Below, piece by piece: positions 37,019 to 44,763 of a stretch of DNA of 64,000 nucleotides; position 1 is the first letter of the stretch, and each line of letters starts with the position of its first letter. Under the pieces are notes generated by a model, which worked only from the letters and a program-made list of their open reading frames with translations, was not told where the DNA came from and did not search any database. The stretch comes from Minisyncoccota bacterium (lineage in GTDB: Bacteria > Patescibacteriota > Minisyncoccia > Minisyncoccales > RBG-13-42-11), in contig JADHYE010000002.1 in NCBI GenBank assembly GCA_016782605.1, positions 48,067 through 112,066 on the forward strand. Direction: 5' to 3'. Both the position numbers and the translations under genes were made by a program.

Positions 37019-39595
37019 TTAGAATAATGTTTTTTGCTTCAATAATTTCTTGCTTTCACCCTGATCAAAAATCCTGATCTTGCCGAAAACTCCGTCATAT
37101 CCTGGCTCTTTGTTTACCCTCCCCTCTCTTACTCTTAATATTCCTTCTGCAATCTCAGGCAAAGCAGCTGATTTCAGCCTTTCTGGCGAAGTATTGAGAA
37201 GAATCTCAAATTCAGAGCCGAATTCCTCAATCAGGCTTTGGTATGTTTTTTCTACTTGTTTGCTAGCTACGGTCATACCCAAGGTATCAGCAACAATTTC
37301 TACTAGGGGAACTAAACTTTTAAAAGGTATTGCATTTTCCGGCTCAAATCCTTCTTTTTTATCAGACAACGCATCAACCCTGTTTAAAACTCCGACGGTT
37401 AACGGCTTGCCGCAAACCGGACAGATACCGTTGTATTTTTTGGTTTCTGTGGGAGATAATCTGACCTCGCAGTTCCGGTGTCCGTCAAAATGATATTTGC
37501 CTTCTTCCGGAAAAAACTCAATAGTGTATAAAAACTTCTTTGGATCTTTGGTTTTAATCGCTTCGACAATTGATTGATAGCTTAACTCTGTATCAAAAAC
37601 ATTGGCTTCCCTGCCTATCTTCCTTGGACTATGCGCATCGCTGTTTGAGATAAGGGCTGTTTTTCGGCCGTCTGGCATACGCCAAAGCATGTCTGGAGAA
37701 GCGCTCAAACCTGTTTCCATTGCATAAATGTATTTTGATAAATCTTCAAAACATTCTTCAATTGAATCAAATCCTGATTTTGAACCGAAAATGGCGAACC
37801 ATGGGGTCATGCAATTATGAACCGCAGCAAACTCACTAAGATAAGAATTGTCTCCTTCAACTTCTAAATTATAAACTTTACCTTTATACTTTTTAACTTT
37901 AATGTCTAATACTGGTAAATAAATATTTTTCTTGTCTATCCAGCAATGCCTTCGTTCTAATTTATAATTGAATTTTTTGAATTCAAGAGTTTTTAGCAAT
38001 CCAAACAAATCTTCAAAAAATGATAATTGCCTAAATATAAATGAAGAATGTTGGGCTTTAATAATCCTATTTTCCTTTTTATATAAATGAGCATATTTTT
38101 TATTAAATACTTCTTTGGTTTGTTCATAAATAGAAGGAATAATTCCTAGTCGAAGCAGAATAATCTTCATTTGATTCATGAGTTCCCTAGAAGAAGTAAC
38201 GCCACCATCGCCTCGCCACCATCCCCTAAAAACCTCTACTTGTTTTTCCAATGGTAAATTTAACATCCAAGAAGGCAAACACTTGGTATAAGCTTTTCTA
38301 AACTCAGTACTATTATAAAAAATCTGGCTAAAAACTTTTGCTAAAATTTTTGAGAAATAGATAATTTCCACAGCATTTACATCTTTCCTTCTATACAAAC
38401 GAGGTGAAGAAAGGCCAAAAACTTTCTTCATCAATAATTTTACATCCTTAATATATTTATTCTCATTATAATGAAAACAAAACGAAACCGAATCTCTATT
38501 ATCTGCATAACCCTCCGAAAGATAATATCCTACTAATCTACAAAATTCTTTATCTATCTTTATTACATTGTTTAATTTCTTGTCAACTCTTCCTTTAGTA
38601 CAACTTATTTTATCTTGATAAACTTTAAATAATTTTCCAGAAAGATAACTATTAAGTTTAATCTCTTCTATGTTTTTTGTAATATTATTGAACCTTGGAA
38701 AAATAAGGATATCGCCCTTTTTTACTTCTTTCGCTTGGACCCATTGCGGTTTATATTCTTTAAAATAGGGATGTTTGCACCCTCTACTTTTGTGATAAGA
38801 ACAATTTGGCTTACAGATAGTATGTGAACAATTTTTACAGTCCTTATAACTTTTAATTATATAGAATGGATGCTCTTTCGTTGTTTTCAGGCCAATTCTA
38901 AAATTATACGGTCTTATATTATAAACTGGTCCCTTATAAGGTCTAGTATAGATTTGTTTAACTTTCTTCAATCTTCCTTGGTGAGTATAAACTTTATCAC
39001 CAACAGAAATATCTTTTATCGGTTTAACCCCAAGATTGCTATGTAAAAAAGTATCAGGCGGTAAACAATGAGCAGGTATAACTAAGCAGTCTTCTGAAGC
39101 GCTTAAAACAATCTTTGCCAATTCTTTGGCATCCAGTCCCAGAATCGGCCTGCCGTCTGATTTTAAATTGCCGATCCAGCCCAACTGAACGTTAATCTTT
39201 TCTACTGCCTCAAAAGAAGGAGCTAAGATCAAAATATGAATTTTCCTGACTCTGTTGTTAGTCAAAGAGGATAAATCCTCTTTTTCACCCTTCGCTGCGG
39301 CTCGGGTTTTAGAATAAATGCAGCTTATTTCATTGGTCAGGATAAAACGCGTACCGTTATCCTGTTTTTTCATTTTAAAAAGCCCGAGTTCTGCGGGCTC
39401 TAATTTATCTTTTAAAGATTTAAACCACTCCGGATGGCTGAAGTCGCCAGTCCCTAAAACCTTAATGCCCTTGATCTTCGCCCACTTATCAAGATTTTCC
39501 AAATCCATGTCCCTAGAAGTGGCTCTCGAATATTTGCTGTGAATGTGAAAATCCGCTATGAACTTCATCCCAATAAAGCTGCCCAAAATAGGCAT
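37019..39595 (-). CDS. EndoQ-like PHP-domain endonuclease interrupted by an intein
   Basis: Exteins: FIADFHIHSKYSRATS, LGTGDFSHPEWF, VIPAH|CMTPWFAIFGSKSGFDS, and C-terminal zinc finger CPVCGKPLTVGVLNRV. Extein total is 440 aa. Confidence 0.8.
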   Translation of the reverse strand: MPILGSFIGMKFIADFHIHSKYSRATSRDMDLENLDKWAKIKGIKVLGTGDFSHPEWFKSLKDKLEPAELGLFKMKKQDNGTRFILTNEISCIYSKTRAAAKGEKEDLSSLTNNRVRKIHILILAPSFEAVEKINVQLGWIGNLKSDGRPILGLDAKELAKIVLSASEDCLVIPAHCLPPDTFLHSNLGVKPIKDISVGDKVYTHQGRLKKVKQIYTRPYKGPVYNIRPYNFRIGLKTTKEHPFYIIKSYKDCKNCSHTICKPNCSYHKSRGCKHPYFKEYKPQWVQAKEVKKGDILIFPRFNNITKNIEEIKLNSYLSGKLFKVYQDKISCTKGRVDKKLNNVIKIDKEFCRLVGYYLSEGYADNRDSVSFCFHYNENKYIKDVKLLMKKVFGLSSPRLYRRKDVNAVEIIYFSKILAKVFSQIFYNSTEFRKAYTKCLPSWMLNLPLEKQVEVFRGWWRGDGGVTSSRELMNQMKIILLRLGIIPSIYEQTKEVFNKKYAHLYKKENRIIKAQHSSFIFRQLSFFEDLFGLLKTLEFKKFNYKLERRHCWIDKKNIYLPVLDIKVKKYKGKVYNLEVEGDNSYLSEFAAVHNCMTPWFAIFGSKSGFDSIEECFEDLSKYIYAMETGLSASPDMLWRMPDGRKTALISNSDAHSPRKIGREANVFDTELSYQSIVEAIKTKDPKKFLYTIEFFPEEGKYHFDGHRNCEVRLSPTETKKYNGICPVCGKPLTVGVLNRVDALSDKKEGFEPENAIPFKSLVPLVEIVADTLGMTVASKQVEKTYQSLIEEFGSEFEILLNTSPERLKSAALPEIAEGILRVREGRVNKEPGYDGVFGKIRIFDQGESKKLLKQKTLF
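37814..39067 (-). mobile_element. intein with a LAGLIDADG homing-endonuclease domain (418 aa, residues 177-594)
   Basis: Starts with Cys (AH|CLPPDTF) and ends VHN|C. Contains LVGYYLSEGYADN and FRGWWRGDGG dodecapeptide motifs. Boundaries checked codon by codon. Confidence 0.8.
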
Positions 39596-40645: not shown

Positions 40646-40726
40646 ACCCCGTTAGAGAATTAGATGTCAAATAATTTATCATTGGTTATTTTAAACTAAA
40701 ACCCGCCAGAGGTTCTCTAACGGGGT
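40646..40726. repeat. A-family long-stem element A5
   Basis: accccgttagagaa (40646-40659) pairs with ttctctaacggggt (40713-40726). Confidence 0.8.
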
Positions 40727-40923
40727 TTAATAAGGGGGAATAGCTCTTGGCGAACTTGATTATTTACCCGAGTCTAAATGGACATTGTTAGGCAGCTGCT
40801 GTTATCTCCTTCATCAAAAACTATTTGTCCTTTTGGGCAAAAAACCCGCACCCCCTCACTTTTAATTTTAATTGAGTGGTGTTTTTTGTCAAGATTTTGT
40901 TGATTTGCTCGTCTGGGGCTATG

Positions 40924-41012: not shown

Positions 41013-41195
41013 TCAATTATTGCTGTTACACCTACACGGCAATACATTCAACGATGGCATGATGCCATAAGCTTCTGGGTTTAGCGTGCCGTGACATTTA
41101 GAGCAGAATTTTGCTCCGCAACTGTTACATTCATGGTCATCAACCTCGCCGGTACGACAAACAGGACAACTTCCTTCACAACCACAATCTGACAT
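41013..41195 (-). CDS. Cys-rich mini-protein (60 aa, 10 Cys)
   Basis: CGCEGSCPVC..CNSC..CSKC. Strong SD AAGGAGGG. Downstream hairpin plus T-run near 40958-40995. Confidence 0.6.
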   Translation of the reverse strand: MSDCGCEGSCPVCRTGEVDDHECNSCGAKFCSKCHGTLNPEAYGIMPSLNVLPCRCNSNN

Positions 41196-41214
41196 AATAC
41201 CCTCCTTTTAGGTC

Positions 41215-41445
41215 TTAGGAAAAATCTTCACCGCCACACTCTTTACACCCTGGTCCGTCCAATGCTGTACGTGAACCGCAAAAAGGACAAAATGCATTCC
41301 ATAATGGTCCGCCCTCAAATAATAAACTATCTCCAGGAATTGGCACTCCCTGAAAGCAATGAGGCCCATTATGTTCCTTTTTGAGAACGCACAACTTTTC
41401 TCCACTTGCAAGACCGCATCTCTCAATATTTGTCGAAACTGCCAT
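41215..41445 (-). CDS. Cys-rich Zn-ribbon mini-protein (76 aa)
   Basis: CPFCGS...CKECGG. Strong SD GGGAGGT at 8-nt spacing. Confidence 0.6.
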   Translation of the reverse strand: MAVSTNIERCGLASGEKLCVLKKEHNGPHCFQGVPIPGDSLLFEGGPLWNAFCPFCGSRTALDGPGCKECGGEDFS

Positions 41446-41586: not shown

Positions 41587-42276
41587 CTACTTCTCCGCAA
41601 TTAAAAAGTGGTGATAAGTAGGGTATTTTAACGTATCTATTCCGTATATCTTTTTTATCTGTTTTACTTCTTCTTTTGTTTTATTAATAACTTTTTTAAC
41701 TTTATATTTTTTAAATTCTACCTCCTTCATTATTTTATTTATAGTTTCTTTAGTATGAAAACATTGCCATTGGCCAGAATCAAAAACTCTAAATTCTTTC
41801 TTATCAAATCGAGGTTTCGTATTATAAATCTTCATTAATTCTATAACTGCTTCAAAAGAAGGTAAAAAAGCCACAAATCTGCCCTTAGGTTTCAATACTC
41901 TATATACCTCTTTAACTATTCTATAAACCTCTTTTCTTTTTTCGGGAAGAATTGAATTAACGGATACTACTGTATCAAAAGTACCCTTACTAAATGGAAG
42001 ATTTCTGCTATCAGCAAGTTTATATTCTAAATTCGGATGGGAAAATAAATGAACAGCTACTTCCAACATTTTTTTACTAAAATCTGTAGCTGTTACTTTA
42101 TTCTTTTGTCTTATCAACTCTCTATTCAAATAAGGCACTGAGCCTGTTCCTAAATTCAAAACCCTGCCTTTCTTTATTACTGCTAAGATTTGTTTTTTCC
42201 TTTGAGGTACTTTCGTCAACGAAAGTACCTCTTCTTCATACTTATTGGCGAATTTGTCCCAAATTTTTTTTGACAT
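41587..42276 (-). CDS. class I SAM-dependent methyltransferase
   Basis: VLNLGTGSV (motif I) and PFSKGTFDTVVS. Confidence 0.8.
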   Translation of the reverse strand: MSKKIWDKFANKYEEEVLSLTKVPQRKKQILAVIKKGRVLNLGTGSVPYLNRELIRQKNKVTATDFSKKMLEVAVHLFSHPNLEYKLADSRNLPFSKGTFDTVVSVNSILPEKRKEVYRIVKEVYRVLKPKGRFVAFLPSFEAVIELMKIYNTKPRFDKKEFRVFDSGQWQCFHTKETINKIMKEVEFKKYKVKKVINKTKEEVKQIKKIYGIDTLKYPTYHHFLIAEK

Positions 42277-42310
42277 AGATAAAAATTAATACCTTTTTAT
42301 TATTTTACCA

Positions 42311-42338
42311 AAAAACCGCCTGACTGGCGATTTTATTT
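42311..42338 (-). terminator. terminator after the tRNA locus
   Basis: Minus strand CGCC-AGUCA-GGCG followed by GUUUUUUGG. Confidence 0.55.
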
Positions 42339-42339
42339 G

Positions 42340-42519
42340 TGCCCCCAGCAGGAATTTCACCCCGCACCTTTTTAATGTGTCCCCACTCCGATTCGAACGG
42401 AGATTATAACCTCCGGAGGATTATGCTTTATCCATTAAGCTATGGGGACATAAAGGTGCGGGGCAGGCCTGCATTTTAAGTTCCGGAAACTCATGTTCTA
42501 TCCATTAAACTATAGGGGC
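42340..42519 (-). tRNA. interrupted tRNA-Arg(CCG)-like gene (5' 52 nt + 108-nt insert + 3' 20 nt), possibly a pseudogene
   Basis: 42519-42468: GCCCCTA-TA-GTTT-AATGGATA-GAAC-A-TGAGT-TTCCGGA-ACTTA-AAAT-GCAGG. 42359-42340: TGAAATT-CCTGC-TGGGGGC-A. Acceptor pairs 7/7 and T-stem 5/5, but the T-loop is non-canonical. Confidence 0.65.
42378..42449 (-). tRNA. tRNA-Arg (anticodon CCG), canonical 72 nt, nested inside another tRNA gene
   Basis: GTCCCCA-TA-GCTT-AATGGATA-AAGC-A-TAATC-CTCCGGA-GGTTA-TAAT-CTCCG-TTCGAAT-CGGAG-TGGGGAC-A. All stems pair. CCA is not encoded. Confidence 0.9.
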
Positions 42520-43232
42520 TTTTTAGTGATTATATAAATATTACCCTCTTTAGATTTTTTATTTCTAAAACCGCCTATTTTCTTTGTTTTTAAACCCGAC
42601 TGTTCAGCTAATTCTTTTAGTTCGCTTTTCGTAAAAAAGTGAACGTAGCGCAAGAGAATATTGCGCCAAGGAATGAAAAAATCTTTAAAATCGAGCTTTG
42701 ATTTTCCTAAAATTTTTAAGACAAAACATTTTAAAAAATTTAAAAATCTTTTGTACCGACCGGTTAGAATCATATCAATCGGATTTAAGTTCCAAACAGT
42801 TAAAATTAACGTTCCTTTGGGCTTCATGATTCTTTTTATCTCTTCTAAAAATTTGAGGCGCAATTCTTTAGATGGAATATGATGCAATACGGCAATACAT
42901 AAAACTCTATCGAAAAGATTATCCGGAAATGGTAAATTAAAAGCAGACGAAACTAGAAAATTACCGTTAGGATACTTGTTTTTCGCAATTTCAATTAATC
43001 TTTCTGAAAAATCTATTCCAGTATAGTCAACTTTTTTGTCGTTAAATATTTCAAAAAATCTCCCATTTCCACAACCTAGATCTAAAACTTTATCTCCGAC
43101 AAAAATGTGTCGCAAGAACCATTCTTTCTCTTTAAGAGGAACGAAACTTCTAGTCTTTGACCAGTCCTCAGCAATCAAGTTATAATCTTCCTTAGTTTTA
43201 TTTAATAAATATTGAGCAAAATCTTTATCCAT
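42510..43232 (-). CDS. class I SAM-dependent methyltransferase, Trm9/Methyltransf_11-like
   Basis: YNLIAEDWSKTRSF..W, LDLGCGNGRF, LCIAVLHHIP. Its last 10 nt overlap the 5' acceptor of the outer tRNA. Confidence 0.7.
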   Translation of the reverse strand: MDKDFAQYLLNKTKEDYNLIAEDWSKTRSFVPLKEKEWFLRHIFVGDKVLDLGCGNGRFFEIFNDKKVDYTGIDFSERLIEIAKNKYPNGNFLVSSAFNLPFPDNLFDRVLCIAVLHHIPSKELRLKFLEEIKRIMKPKGTLILTVWNLNPIDMILTGRYKRFLNFLKCFVLKILGKSKLDFKDFFIPWRNILLRYVHFFTKSELKELAEQSGLKTKKIGGFRNKKSKEGNIYIITKKPL

Positions 43233-44763
43233 GGATTATAAAGAATTAATAATCAGAGAAATTATTAAAAATCGGGTAAAAAACCGAAATGATTTAGCTA
43301 AAATCAAGAGAAAAGCTGCCAAAAACCACAAAATCCCTTGTCCAGATAACATTTCTCTATTAAAAACTTACCACGAATTAACTAAAAAGAAAAAGATAAA
43401 AAAATCACCACTTTTGGAGTTTTTATTAATAACAAGGCCGATTCGTTCTTTATCCGGTATAGTTAACATTTCAGTTCTCACCAAACCCTACCCTTGTCCT
43501 GGCAAATGCCTTTATTGCCCACAAGAAGTAAATATCCCCAAAAGCTATGTTTCAGGGGAACCAGCCGTAGAAAGAGCTAAAAAACTGCATTATGACCCGT
43601 ATTTACAAACAAAATTAAGAATTGAGATGCTGGAAAACGAAGGACATCCCACTGATAAAATCGAACTGAGAATTGTCGGTGGCACCTGGTCTTTCTACCC
43701 TAAAAAATACCAGGAATGGTTTGTCAAAAGATGCTTTGACGCCTGTAATAAAAGAAAAAACAAAACCTTAAAAGAGGCTCAAACAATCAATGAAAAAGCA
43801 AAACACAGAATAGTCGGATTGTCCATCGAAACAAGGCCGGATTTCATAAACGAAAAGGAAATCACACATTTAAGAGACTTAGGAGCAACAATGGTTGAAT
43901 TAGGAGTGCAAACGATTTATAACGACATTCTCGACATAAACCTAAGAGGACACAAAGTAAAAGAAACAATTTCAGCAACAAAGCTTTTAAAAGACGCTGG
44001 TTTTAAGGTTCTTTACCAGATAATGCCCAATCTACCAGGTTCCAACATCAAAAAAGACGAAGCAATGTTCAAAGAATTATTCAAAAACCAAGATTTTCAG
44101 CCAGATCTCTTAAAGATATATCCTTGCGCACTTTTAAAAGAAGCTCCTCTATATAAATTATGGAAAAAGAAAAAATATAAGCCATATACAGAAAAACAAC
44201 TAATAAATCTAATTAAAACAATAAAAAAGAAAATCCCTTCATATATAAGAATTCAAAGGATAAGCAGGGATATTCCTTCTTCGCGCATTATCGCTGGTCC
44301 GGCCAAAATCTCTAATATCCGCCAGATTCTAAAAAACCAAAATCTACACTGTAAATGCATAAGATGCAGGGAAGTAAGAGATAACTACAAAACAAAAGAA
44401 AAATTGTATTTATTCAAAAAAGAATATAAAGCTTCCAAGGGCAAAGAAATATTTCTGAGCTTTGAAAACAAAAATAGAACAAAGCTTCACAGTTTACTCC
44501 GTTTAAGGAAAACTTCAGAAAACAAAGCAATTATCCGCGAAGTCCACACTTTCGGGCAACAAATACCGATAAGCGAACGTCAAAGCTCAATATCCCCCCA
44601 GCACCATGGACTGGGCAAGAAACTAATTAAAGAAGCTGAAAGAATTACCAAAAAAGAACTCAATTTAAAAAAAATCAGCGTTATTGCCGCTGTCGGAGCA
44701 AGAAACTATTTCAAAAAATCAGGGTATAAGCTGGAAAACACTTATATGGTTAAGATTCTTTAA
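43231..44763 (+). CDS. elp3: Elp3-family radical SAM/GNAT tRNA wobble-uridine modification enzyme
   Basis: 510 aa. Radical SAM CPGKCLYCP (Cx3Cx2C), TIM-barrel region, C-terminal GNAT motif QHHGLGKKL. Confidence 0.85.
   Translation: MDYKELIIREIIKNRVKNRNDLAKIKRKAAKNHKIPCPDNISLLKTYHELTKKKKIKKSPLLEFLLITRPIRSLSGIVNISVLTKPYPCPGKCLYCPQEVNIPKSYVSGEPAVERAKKLHYDPYLQTKLRIEMLENEGHPTDKIELRIVGGTWSFYPKKYQEWFVKRCFDACNKRKNKTLKEAQTINEKAKHRIVGLSIETRPDFINEKEITHLRDLGATMVELGVQTIYNDILDINLRGHKVKETISATKLLKDAGFKVLYQIMPNLPGSNIKKDEAMFKELFKNQDFQPDLLKIYPCALLKEAPLYKLWKKKKYKPYTEKQLINLIKTIKKKIPSYIRIQRISRDIPSSRIIAGPAKISNIRQILKNQNLHCKCIRCREVRDNYKTKEKLYLFKKEYKASKGKEIFLSFENKNRTKLHSLLRLRKTSENKAIIREVHTFGQQIPISERQSSISPQHHGLGKKLIKEAERITKKELNLKKISVIAAVGARNYFKKSGYKLENTYMVKIL

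Follow-up and report, generated by a model that had tools for sequence, protein, structure and literature searches.

A hairpin cassette carrying a complete tRNA, inserted into the T-loop of a resident tRNA-Arg(CCG) gene in a patescibacterial genome

In a 64,000-nucleotide stretch of contig JADHYE010000002.1 from a Minisyncoccota bacterium (hereafter the window), a complete tRNA-Arg(CCG) gene lies within the T-loop of a second tRNA-Arg(CCG) gene. Comparison with related genomes shows that a cassette was inserted into the T-loop of the resident tRNA-Arg(CCG), and that the inner tRNA is foreign to the window lineage. The element, a tRNA enclosed by two GC-rich complementary arms, is a member of a widespread, apparently unreported family. 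We consider it likely that such elements are mobile hairpin cassettes that knock out a resident tRNA gene and supply its replacement, using the expression signals of the resident gene.

The nested locus and its empty sites

The insert, on the minus strand, spans 42467-42356 (~110-116 nt) and consists of CCTG, one arm, a tRNA, the complementary arm and TGAA. It splits a resident gene whose 5' part comprises the acceptor 5' strand, D arm, anticodon arm (CCG), variable loop and the T-stem strand GCAGG. A preliminary description of this DNA had listed the same elements, and all of them were found on the minus strand where it had placed them:

42468..42519, minus strand: 5' part of the outer (resident) tRNA-Arg(CCG), GCCCCTA/TA/GTTT-AATGGATA-GAAC/A/TGAGT-TTCCGGA-ACTTA/AAAT/GCAGG
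42464..42467, minus strand: left junction tetranucleotide CCTG, delimited by empty-site comparison with L008-L013
42452..42463, minus strand: left inverted-repeat arm CCCCGCACCTTT, the 9-bp core CCCCGCACC plus an A/T extension
42450..42451, minus strand: 2-nt leader AT separating stem and inner tRNA, read from the sequence
42378..42449, minus strand: inner canonical tRNA-Arg(CCG), the cargo, identified by ARAGORN, Rfam and our own tRNA model
42372..42377, minus strand: 6-nt trailer CATTAA, read from the sequence
42360..42371, minus strand: right inverted-repeat arm AAAGGTGCGGGG, found by repeat search
42356..42359, minus strand: right junction tetranucleotide TGAA, delimited by empty-site comparison
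42340..42355, minus strand: 3' part of the outer tRNA, with the T-loop remainder ATT, CCTGC, TGGGGGC and the discriminator A

The inner gene scores 60.7 bits against Rfam RF00005 (gathering score 29) and 69.4 bits with our own tRNA model, is called tRNA-Arg(CCG) by ARAGORN, has the make-up of a canonical bacterial tRNA, and is presumably functional. Taken by itself, the outer 5' part reaches 24.4 bits with the Rfam tRNA model (E = 0.0066 in a 371-nt region, at a permissive threshold) and 26.5 bits with our own. At normal settings, ARAGORN and Rfam call no tRNA but the inner gene at this locus. The preliminary description had proposed an ARAGORN search that included intron modes; these modes never find the outer gene in place, and the spliced outer sequence yields no ARAGORN tRNA at default settings, being accepted in pseudogene mode only. 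Our covariance model does detect the outer halves; its glocal matches report positions 1-72 and so give no break-point positions.

The perfect stem described earlier is borne out: the 12-bp arms are 100% complementary, and the exact 12-mer occurs at these two places only in the 64-kb window. In the predicted fold of the 201-nt RNA, the acceptor, D, anticodon and T stems of the outer tRNA are followed by the long stem and then by the inner tRNA, which is looped out. The minimum free energy of this fold is -73.7 kcal/mol (z = -5.25), and none of 200 shuffled sequences folds as well.

Relatives of the window organism carry the same site without the insert, in agreement with the outcome that the preliminary description had suggested looking for. 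The closest relative found, whose methyltransferase, ELP3 and LDcluster4 proteins are 90%, 93% and 95% identical to those of the window, has a single uninterrupted tRNA-Arg(CCG) in the same place, with the same stop-codon overlap (L008-L013; six contigs from different samples). Its tRNA is identical at 69 of 72 positions to the outer gene repaired by restoring TTCG. The three differences, at positions 7, 22 and 42, all fall within positions 1-52 and each keeps pairing, and the outer 3' part (42340..42355) is identical to positions 57-72 of the relative's tRNA. Where the relative's T-loop reads TTCGATT, the window has CCTG, the cassette and TGAA in place of TTCG; on this comparison, the CCTG at 42464..42467 is inserted DNA that lies outside any native T-loop. 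Relatives at 60-63% methyltransferase identity, including L020, likewise have one uninterrupted tRNA-Arg(CCG) at the site.

The inner gene does not resemble the gene that it interrupts as closely as it resembles the resident gene of a distant relative. It matches its own outer gene at 50 of 72 positions and the gene of the closest relative at 49 of 72, whereas it matches the resident tRNA-Arg(CCG) of L020, the relative at 60% identity, at 64 of 72. Once the insert is removed, the outer T-loop reads UGAAAUU and lacks the canonical U54-U55-C56-R57-A58 pattern; the earlier observation of a non-canonical outer T-loop thus holds, with TGAAATT in the window against TTCGATT in the closest relative, U55 and C56 being gone. 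Because no excision can rebuild U54-U55-C56, we infer from the altered T-loop that the outer gene of the window is a young pseudogene.

A family of cassettes with tRNA and other cargo

The two halves of the stem recur far beyond this locus. The core CCCCGCACC/GGTGCGGGG is common to at least 240 loci outside the window, collected in a scan of genomes and a scan of metagenomes. The genome scan, in which one genome per GTDB species was searched for the 9-bp cores around a T-loop motif, gave at least 120 matches. A complete tRNA is enclosed in 114 of the 120 matches listed, the other six being high-GC chance matches. The hosts of these listed matches are almost all Patescibacteria and include most classes of the candidate phyla radiation (CPR): Saccharibacteria, Uhr-, Moran-, Portnoy-, Doudna-, Giovannoni-, Nealson-, Levy-, Wolfe-, Buchanan- and Liptonbacteria and others, along with a few metagenome-assembled genomes (MAGs) labelled otherwise. 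On these sequence matches, the family is present in more than 100 CPR species. Some genomes carry two or three nested loci. Among 108 cases from the matches listed that were analysed in detail, the window included, 31 anticodons are represented. The tRNA-bearing copies typically have leaders of 2-6 nt. Beyond the 9-bp core, the arms remain complementary for another 3-5 bases in 40 different extension sequences; therefore, the hairpin itself is under selection.

The flanks of these cassettes are usually the two parts of another tRNA. In 59 of 107 listed cases, the inner tRNA aligns to its flanks with a combined score above the 95th percentile of mismatched controls. Wherever the outer anticodon can be read, it equals the inner anticodon (12 T-loop cases, window included, one D-loop case and nine anticodon-loop cases). 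Thirteen calls of some other outer anticodon were rejected as splicing artefacts within disrupted anticodon loops, and in no case was a genuinely different outer anticodon found. Insertion points lie in the T-loop, the anticodon loop or the D-loop, and in some cases the cassette stem replaces the whole anticodon arm. The junctions are stereotyped: the left one is CYYG in 14 of 15 T-loop cases (8 CCCG, 3 CCTG, 3 CACG), the right one is TGAA followed by A58-N-N in 14 of 15, and 13 of the 15, window included, have the full form GG-CYYG-[cassette]-TGAA-A58-N-N-CC. In tRNA-Pro(CGG) anticodon loops, TTCG at positions 32-35 has been replaced the same way. Target duplications are generally absent from the tRNA-bearing copies.

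Across the family, inner and outer tRNAs are 0.54-0.97 identical (median 0.73). Their acceptor stems are often wholly different yet fully paired in both partners, for example GATTCCG/CGGAATC versus GGGTGCT/AGTACCC. Stems that differ but pair perfectly indicate that the two tRNAs evolved as working molecules in different lineages before they were joined; on this pattern of compensated differences, the inner and outer genes are xenologs. Cassettes also recur in distant hosts. With its trailer CACATTAAAA counted in, the window cassette shares 90% identity with one in Parcubacteria bacterium DG_74_3 (L250, LJNG01000003.1), where it occupies the T-loop of that organism's own tRNA-Arg(CCG) in a syntenic ELP3-methyltransferase-tRNA-LDcluster4 locus (L250 ~2500-2700). 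The two hosts are distant (methyltransferase 49%, ELP3 65%), their outer genes are identical at 37 of 52 positions, and closer relatives of the window organism have no insert. Similarly, a Met cassette is found 91% identical in the T-loop of a Nealsonbacterium gene and in the anticodon loop of a gene in another Parcubacterium. As judged from these alignments, the occurrence of near-identical cassettes in different resident genes and their patchy distribution provide direct evidence that the cassettes move horizontally.

The outer genes show various states of decay. In the outer tRNA of DG_74_3, the anticodon CCG has become CCA and the acceptor stem contains two mismatches, two related MAGs (L194, L247) have lost the outer 5' half, and several insertions destroy the outer anticodon itself or replace the anticodon arm. 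The outer copies thus altered look dispensable. Many disabled outer tRNA genes also gather other small GC-rich hairpin families, for example CCTGCCTGCCGGCAGGCAGG, GCCCCGTAA...TTACGGGGC, TCCGCC...GGCGGA and CCCTG...CAGGG; such hairpins occur in the D-loops of outer tRNAs in L165, L171, L189 and L233, and also in L176, L194, L247 and L230. One such hairpin in L194 lies within the right arm of the cassette.

Most copies among the metagenome matches listed carry no tRNA. The metagenome scan, in which JGI contigs were searched for the two exact 12-mers 60-90 nt apart, gave at least 120 loci, against our estimate of about one or fewer chance matches for 24 specified bases. The loci listed come from low-GC contigs (median 41%) from groundwater and sediment. 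Among them, the cargo between the arms is 60-90 nt long and very diverse: about a third have a common hairpin core resembling AGCCG-NNA-GGCGGCTTCGCC, others are AT-rich, and six carry complete tRNAs. Perfect 4-bp TNNA direct repeats flank 33 of ~105 copies among the matches listed (TCAA/TTGA 21, TAAA/TTTA 10, TGAA/TTCA 2). Many non-tRNA copies are arranged TTGA-element-TTGACA, directly upstream of a promoter-like -35 hexamer, and in some places one copy sits in the apical loop of another. In L113 (2695-2804; also L048 and L142), a copy with non-tRNA cargo lies in a CPR 16S rRNA gene, at about E. coli position 1165, where it replaces the tip of helix 40; that 16S gene spans 2.6 kb owing to other insertions. 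From these sequence features, the mostly non-tRNA copies seem to behave like miniature inverted-repeat transposable elements (MITEs).

Many non-tRNA copies also sit within a larger imperfect palindrome, GCGAAG..AAATTT..AAAACCTTTA, the element, then TGCTCAATTTTGTAGCTAAAA..CTTCGC, in L024, L057, L070, L095, L122, L124, L126, L127 and L135 and, in reverse orientation, in L053, L080, L085, L092 and L109. This larger palindrome may be a longer composite element or a ~170-nt structured RNA.

Proposed mechanism and rival explanations

The preliminary description had offered two readings of the nested locus, a palindromic mobile element whose replacement tRNA killed the host tRNA, and a single transcript that yields two tRNAs, with a preference for the former. 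The empty site, the large repeat family and the 90%-identical cassette elsewhere favour the former, which corresponds to the knock-out-and-replacement reading given at the outset. Cassettes would insert into exposed loops of tRNA (and rRNA) genes. After insertion, the inner tRNA would be transcribed from the promoter of the resident tRNA through to the downstream terminator-like hairpin, and released from the precursor by RNase P and ordinary 3'-end processing, with the GC-rich stem merely holding leader and trailer together. The inner gene would now be the working tRNA-Arg(CCG) gene. If the resident tRNA genes of these tiny genomes are each single-copy and essential, only cargo that decodes the same codon would be survivable, and the cassette would then be locked in; this is the weakest step of the scheme. 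We favour such a selection filter because an identity between inner and outer genes as low as 55-70% rules out ordinary homologous pairing. The non-tRNA copies may instead be mobilised in trans, by MITE-like transposition with TNNA duplications.

The insertion chemistry of the tRNA copies leaves a distinct trace. They are bounded by CYYG at one end and TGAA or TAAA at the other, with both orientations relative to the direction of transcription represented; the junction is therefore a feature of the DNA, given that a G-T wobble in one strand corresponds to an A-C mismatch in its complement. The cleanest pure insertions, in which CYYG and the cassette are simply added, fall at a G/T step: G53/T54 in L211, G35/T36 in a tRNA-Thr and G34/T35 in a tRNA-Asp. 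By analogy with known hairpin substrates, these junctions would fit site-specific insertion of a folded hairpin better than cut-and-paste transposition. Several other junction models were rejected, as none fits all cases: duplication of 2 or 4 bp at TTCGAA/TCGA, palindromic P-nucleotides, and copying of the 3' strand of the T-stem. The 9-bp GC clamp CCCCGCACC/GGTGCGGGG must be read by some protein. Genes for XerC/XerD-type tyrosine recombinases lie 0.1-1.5 kb from cassettes at five of ~240 loci, about four of them independent, where we estimate that about one would be expected by chance from genome size:

L188, 2747-3778: Xer-type gene
L203, 3879-4799: Xer-type gene
L165, 872-1789: Xer-type gene
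L172, 3165-4082: Xer-type gene
L095, 2-766: Xer-type gene

An Xer-type recombinase as the insertion enzyme is a weak lead. Otherwise, the protein clusters that recur in the neighbourhood of the elements are housekeeping ones. The mechanism of insertion and targeting stands a substantial chance of being of a new kind. In a bolder and doubtful version of the idea, to which we give well under even chances, the cassettes would be "homing tRNA genes": a dedicated mechanism, not selection alone, would find the cognate resident gene, and the cassettes would spread as a knock-out-and-rescue drive that replaces the CPR tRNA set with foreign versions. For example, the tRNA loop of a single-stranded hairpin might pair with the resident gene, and a structure-specific recombinase or nuclease might open the loop at G/T.

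Several observations weigh against the knock-out-and-replacement reading. Cognate pairing by selection alone requires many lethal non-cognate insertions, and a further tRNA-Arg(CCG) copy may exist beyond the 64-kb window. The window copy has no target duplication, and no model that we tried fits all cases of the CYYG...TGAA junction, at which 0-5 resident bases are lost across the family. No transposase, recombinase or nuclease could be tied to the elements, the enrichment of Xer-type genes near cassettes is weak, and no repeat pair encloses an open reading frame (ORF) in ~1.7 Mb of fetched loci. Every insertion seen is in a loop or replaces a whole arm, which could hint at a constraint on RNA structure. 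Finally, the outer gene of the window keeps all four stems, and its three differences preserve pairing, which would also fit a retained role; we read the intact stems as a sign that the insertion is recent.

Carriers of the element were also sought. Among the same fetched loci, no repeat pair 250-4000 bp apart that would mark an autonomous copy has extended complementarity or an ORF. A phage carrier was rejected. The exact repeat pair and the tRNA-cassette pattern each gave 0 matches in IMG/VR, and BLAST against phage genomes gave a generic tRNA-Arg match only. The short-hairpin pattern gave 120 listed viral matches, all high-GC (median 67%), which were discarded as chance or terminator hairpins.

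Among the rival explanations, the one closest to the second of the two earlier readings treats the insert as an intervening sequence at the RNA level. One transcript would give two working tRNAs: the inner one would be cut out by RNase P and a 3' nuclease, while the outer halves, held by the 12-bp, T and acceptor stems, would be religated or would function as a two-piece tRNA. In its favour, none of the outer stems is broken, the predicted fold is a nested cloverleaf, the insertions across the family lie in loops or replace whole arms with the cassette stem continuing the interrupted helix, and a minority of outer genes (Thr 35/36, Asp 34/35 and the L211 T-loop) are restored perfectly by removing CYYG and the cassette. 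The window gene is not among them: its best loop is UGAAAUU, U54-U55-C56 cannot be recovered, and ARAGORN rejects the spliced product at default settings. Many sister copies have a destroyed anticodon or no anticodon arm, the DG_74_3 outer gene has a CCA anticodon and a mismatched acceptor stem, some lineages have lost the outer 5' half, and older outer copies decay. The junction is strand-asymmetric whatever the direction of transcription. We know of no bacterial tRNA splicing endonuclease, which also counts against this explanation. In archaeal hosts, the bulge-helix-bulge (BHB) motif that marks exon-intron borders consists of a 3-nt bulge, a 4-bp helix and a second 3-nt bulge. It was not found in the predicted fold, where the junction is an internal loop, CC/CCUG opposite AAAUU/UGAAAUU, without staggered 3-nt bulges. 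Bacterial group I introns have a ribozyme core (P1-P9), are usually >200 nt and lie in the anticodon loop, whereas this insert, 116 nt long and situated in the T-loop, gives no Intron_gpI match in Rfam even at E <= 10. A group I or archaeal BHB intron was accordingly rejected on size, position, the lack of an Rfam match and the lack of a BHB. Overall, two working tRNAs from one transcript strike us as quite unlikely, and the second reading of the preliminary description is not supported.

The GC-clamp stem might alternatively be a device of the host, a processing, stability or recombination signal used to install and express foreign replacement tRNA genes, with the host renewing its tRNA set by taking up foreign DNA. 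The extreme conservation of the 9-bp core across most CPR classes, the presence of several nested tRNAs in some genomes and the lack of any dedicated mobility gene in the fetched loci would suit such a device. Set against this, the same repeats bound non-tRNA cargo with target duplications, copies upstream of promoters, nested in themselves or within 16S rRNA have the traits of a selfish repeat, and the distribution is patchy among close relatives; we hold the idea to be unlikely. It is very improbable that the resident gene was duplicated in place, by template switching or reverse transcription into a T-loop hairpin without horizontal transfer. A few near-identical pairs (L192 0.97, L169 0.95, L160 0.94) point that way. 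For the window, this origin was rejected on the identity figures, the inner gene matching the outer at 50 of 72 positions while the outer matches the relative at 69 of 72; moreover, the differences are fully compensated in both partners, and near-identical cassettes occupy unrelated resident genes. An assembly error or chimera, which the preliminary description had named as a possible undoing of the locus, can be virtually discounted. Two contigs, L005 and L006, do begin at the right border of the insert, exactly with TGAAATT. Their starts were considered as a presence/absence polymorphism, and this was rejected: the SPAdes k=55 and Logan k=31 nodes share the right end GGTAA, and the coincidence with the border is put down to chance because the assembly graph branches downstream of the tRNA. 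The nested sequence is identical across both junctions in three contigs from three samples (SRR12042682, ERZ24794679 and ERZ24794672; loci L001/L004, L002 and L003, respectively), and >100 analogous loci exist in other genomes. Thus, a mobile hairpin cassette that replaces the tRNA it disrupts remains the reading that we prefer.

Genomic setting and known systems

The nested tRNA lies between a Trm9/UbiE-like methyltransferase gene (240 aa), whose stop codon overlaps the first bases of the outer tRNA, and a second methyltransferase gene (229 aa). The flanking proteins have homologues from organisms named Nealsonbacteria, Paceibacteria or Patescibacteria, which makes the host a CPR bacterium, and the window has a G+C content of 34-41%. 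Two putative expression signals flank the resident gene:

42529..42534, minus strand: candidate -10 box TATAAT, 9 nt upstream of the outer 5' end, within the methyltransferase coding end
42307..42327, minus strand: terminator-like hairpin TCGCC-AGTCA-GGCGG-TTTTTT, 13 nt past the outer 3' end, found by eye

A consensus promoter scan gave only a weaker overlapping match, TTTATA-18-TATAGT (42538-42509). The hairpin at 42307..42327 was not flagged by the consensus terminator scan, and its support is weak.

The surroundings hold further features. In 42510-44763, a gene for an ELP3-type radical S-adenosylmethionine protein and the Trm9/UbiE-like methyltransferase gene are divergent and adjoin the tRNA-Arg(CCG); the ELP3-methyltransferase-tRNA-Arg(CCG) synteny is kept down to 49% protein identity. 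The 229-aa methyltransferase gene contains, immediately within its 5' end, a perfect 13-bp palindrome, GAGGTACTTTCGT/ACGAAAGTACCTC (42204-42231), which scored as terminator-like on the opposite strand. Two small Cys-rich ORFs (60 and 76 aa; CxxC) occupy 41013-41445 on the minus strand, between the tRNA and a candidate noncoding RNA. The closest relative lacks both ORFs and the 229-aa methyltransferase and has a SocA_Panacea gene pair in their place, pointing to a variable spot beside the tRNA. The candidate structured RNA itself (40675-40865, minus strand; ~130 nt, GAGGGGGTGCGGG...CCCCCT followed by a short terminal hairpin) is syntenic between tRNA-Arg and LDcluster4 in all relatives (L014, L015, L018, L020, L250), where a TTGACA promoter box precedes it; it has no Rfam match at the gathering threshold and a fold z-score of only -2.3. 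Farther away, an 858-aa PHP-like protein of the MJ0043_C type (37019-39595, minus strand) contains an intein and a LAGLIDADG homing-endonuclease domain according to precomputed Pfam tags; the corresponding gene of the closest relative encodes 424 aa, which suggests that it is intein-free. A full-length bacterial tmRNA at 27817-28174 on the plus strand (Rfam, 133 bits) confirms that the host is a bacterium.

In size and layout, the element is closest to MITEs and palindromic elements such as the Correia elements of Neisseria and the RPE of Rickettsia, which are likewise ~85-130 bp, protein-noncoding, bounded by terminal inverted repeats and present in many copies. Family copies lie near promoters and inside RNA genes, and the non-tRNA copies have 4-bp duplications; terminal inverted repeats, many copies and an empty site in a related genome are all present here. 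The window copy departs from MITEs in lacking a target duplication, with CCTG on the left, TGAA on the right and no direct repeat. Like >100 others, it carries a complete tRNA, has the CYYG...TGAA junction and sits in a cognate tRNA gene, and to our knowledge no MITE family carries a complete tRNA into a tRNA gene of the same anticodon. Integrase-driven islands and prophages reportedly integrate into tRNA genes, which a duplicated 3' segment then makes whole again. They share with the cassettes their tRNA targets, often at the T-loop or anticodon loop, and a compensation of the damage by tRNA sequence that they bring. Such islands measure kilobases, encode an integrase and replace only the 3' part, which leaves a hybrid tRNA and a partial direct repeat, whereas the window element is ~110 nt, has no integrase and no ORF, supplies an entire tRNA and splits the resident gene without partially duplicating it. 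By analogy, the element might be described as a MITE with an essential passenger, or as a minimal tRNA-targeting integrative element that repairs its target with a whole gene.

Folded hairpins are substrates of tyrosine recombinases in the attC sites of integrons and in attP(+) of the CTX phage (XerCD), and the integron crossover is at G/TT. The cassettes resemble these in having a conserved hairpin, in which structure matters more than loop content, in lacking a target duplication, and in using a G/T step, including G53/T54T55. They differ in carrying a gene within the hairpin loop and not beside it; the likeness is offered as a lead and not as a claim of membership. Archaeal tRNA introns and the split tRNAs of Nanoarchaeum also occupy non-canonical positions, the T-loop included, and GC-rich complementary sequences join their halves. 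In those systems, a BHB and a splicing endonuclease regenerate a functional tRNA and the leader sequences are unique to each pair, whereas the window has a bacterial host with a tmRNA, no BHB, one stem sequence for all copies and an outer tRNA that is not restorable. In rRNA, intervening sequences are removed by RNase III without religation. The cassettes resemble these and the CPR rRNA insertions in that the tip of a native helix in a structural RNA gene gives way to an extended stem-loop, as it does in the sister copy at 16S helix 40; a tRNA that is broken in its T-loop would probably not work. For interrupted tRNA genes in this phylum, the published study that comes nearest deals with group I introns in the anticodon loop (PMC13011429). 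These also interrupt tRNA genes in a way that annotation tools miss, but they are self-splicing, a few hundred nt long and in the anticodon loop (including 35/36), whereas the window insert is 116 nt, mostly tRNA, and in the T-loop.

The preliminary description had noted no earlier account of a tRNA within a tRNA, and our literature searches agree: no report of nested tRNA genes, and none of this repeat, was found in searches that included the repeat sequence and covered few subscription journals, a result that is provisional.

If our reading is correct, the tRNA genes of a huge bacterial radiation would be replaced horizontally by ~100-nt cassettes that become indispensable. The principle of integrating into a tRNA gene and repairing it would be reduced to a minimal form, and an element the size of a MITE would be able to carry an essential gene. 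For annotation, hundreds of outer halves would be unannotated pseudogenes, and the inner genes may pass as vertically inherited, which would distort tRNA-based phylogeny and analyses of integration sites. The same elements interrupt rRNA and may thereby account for some of the insertions long noted in rRNA genes of CPR bacteria. The 9-bp GC clamp would serve as a searchable marker of the family, and as a handle on the insertion machinery in CPR bacteria.

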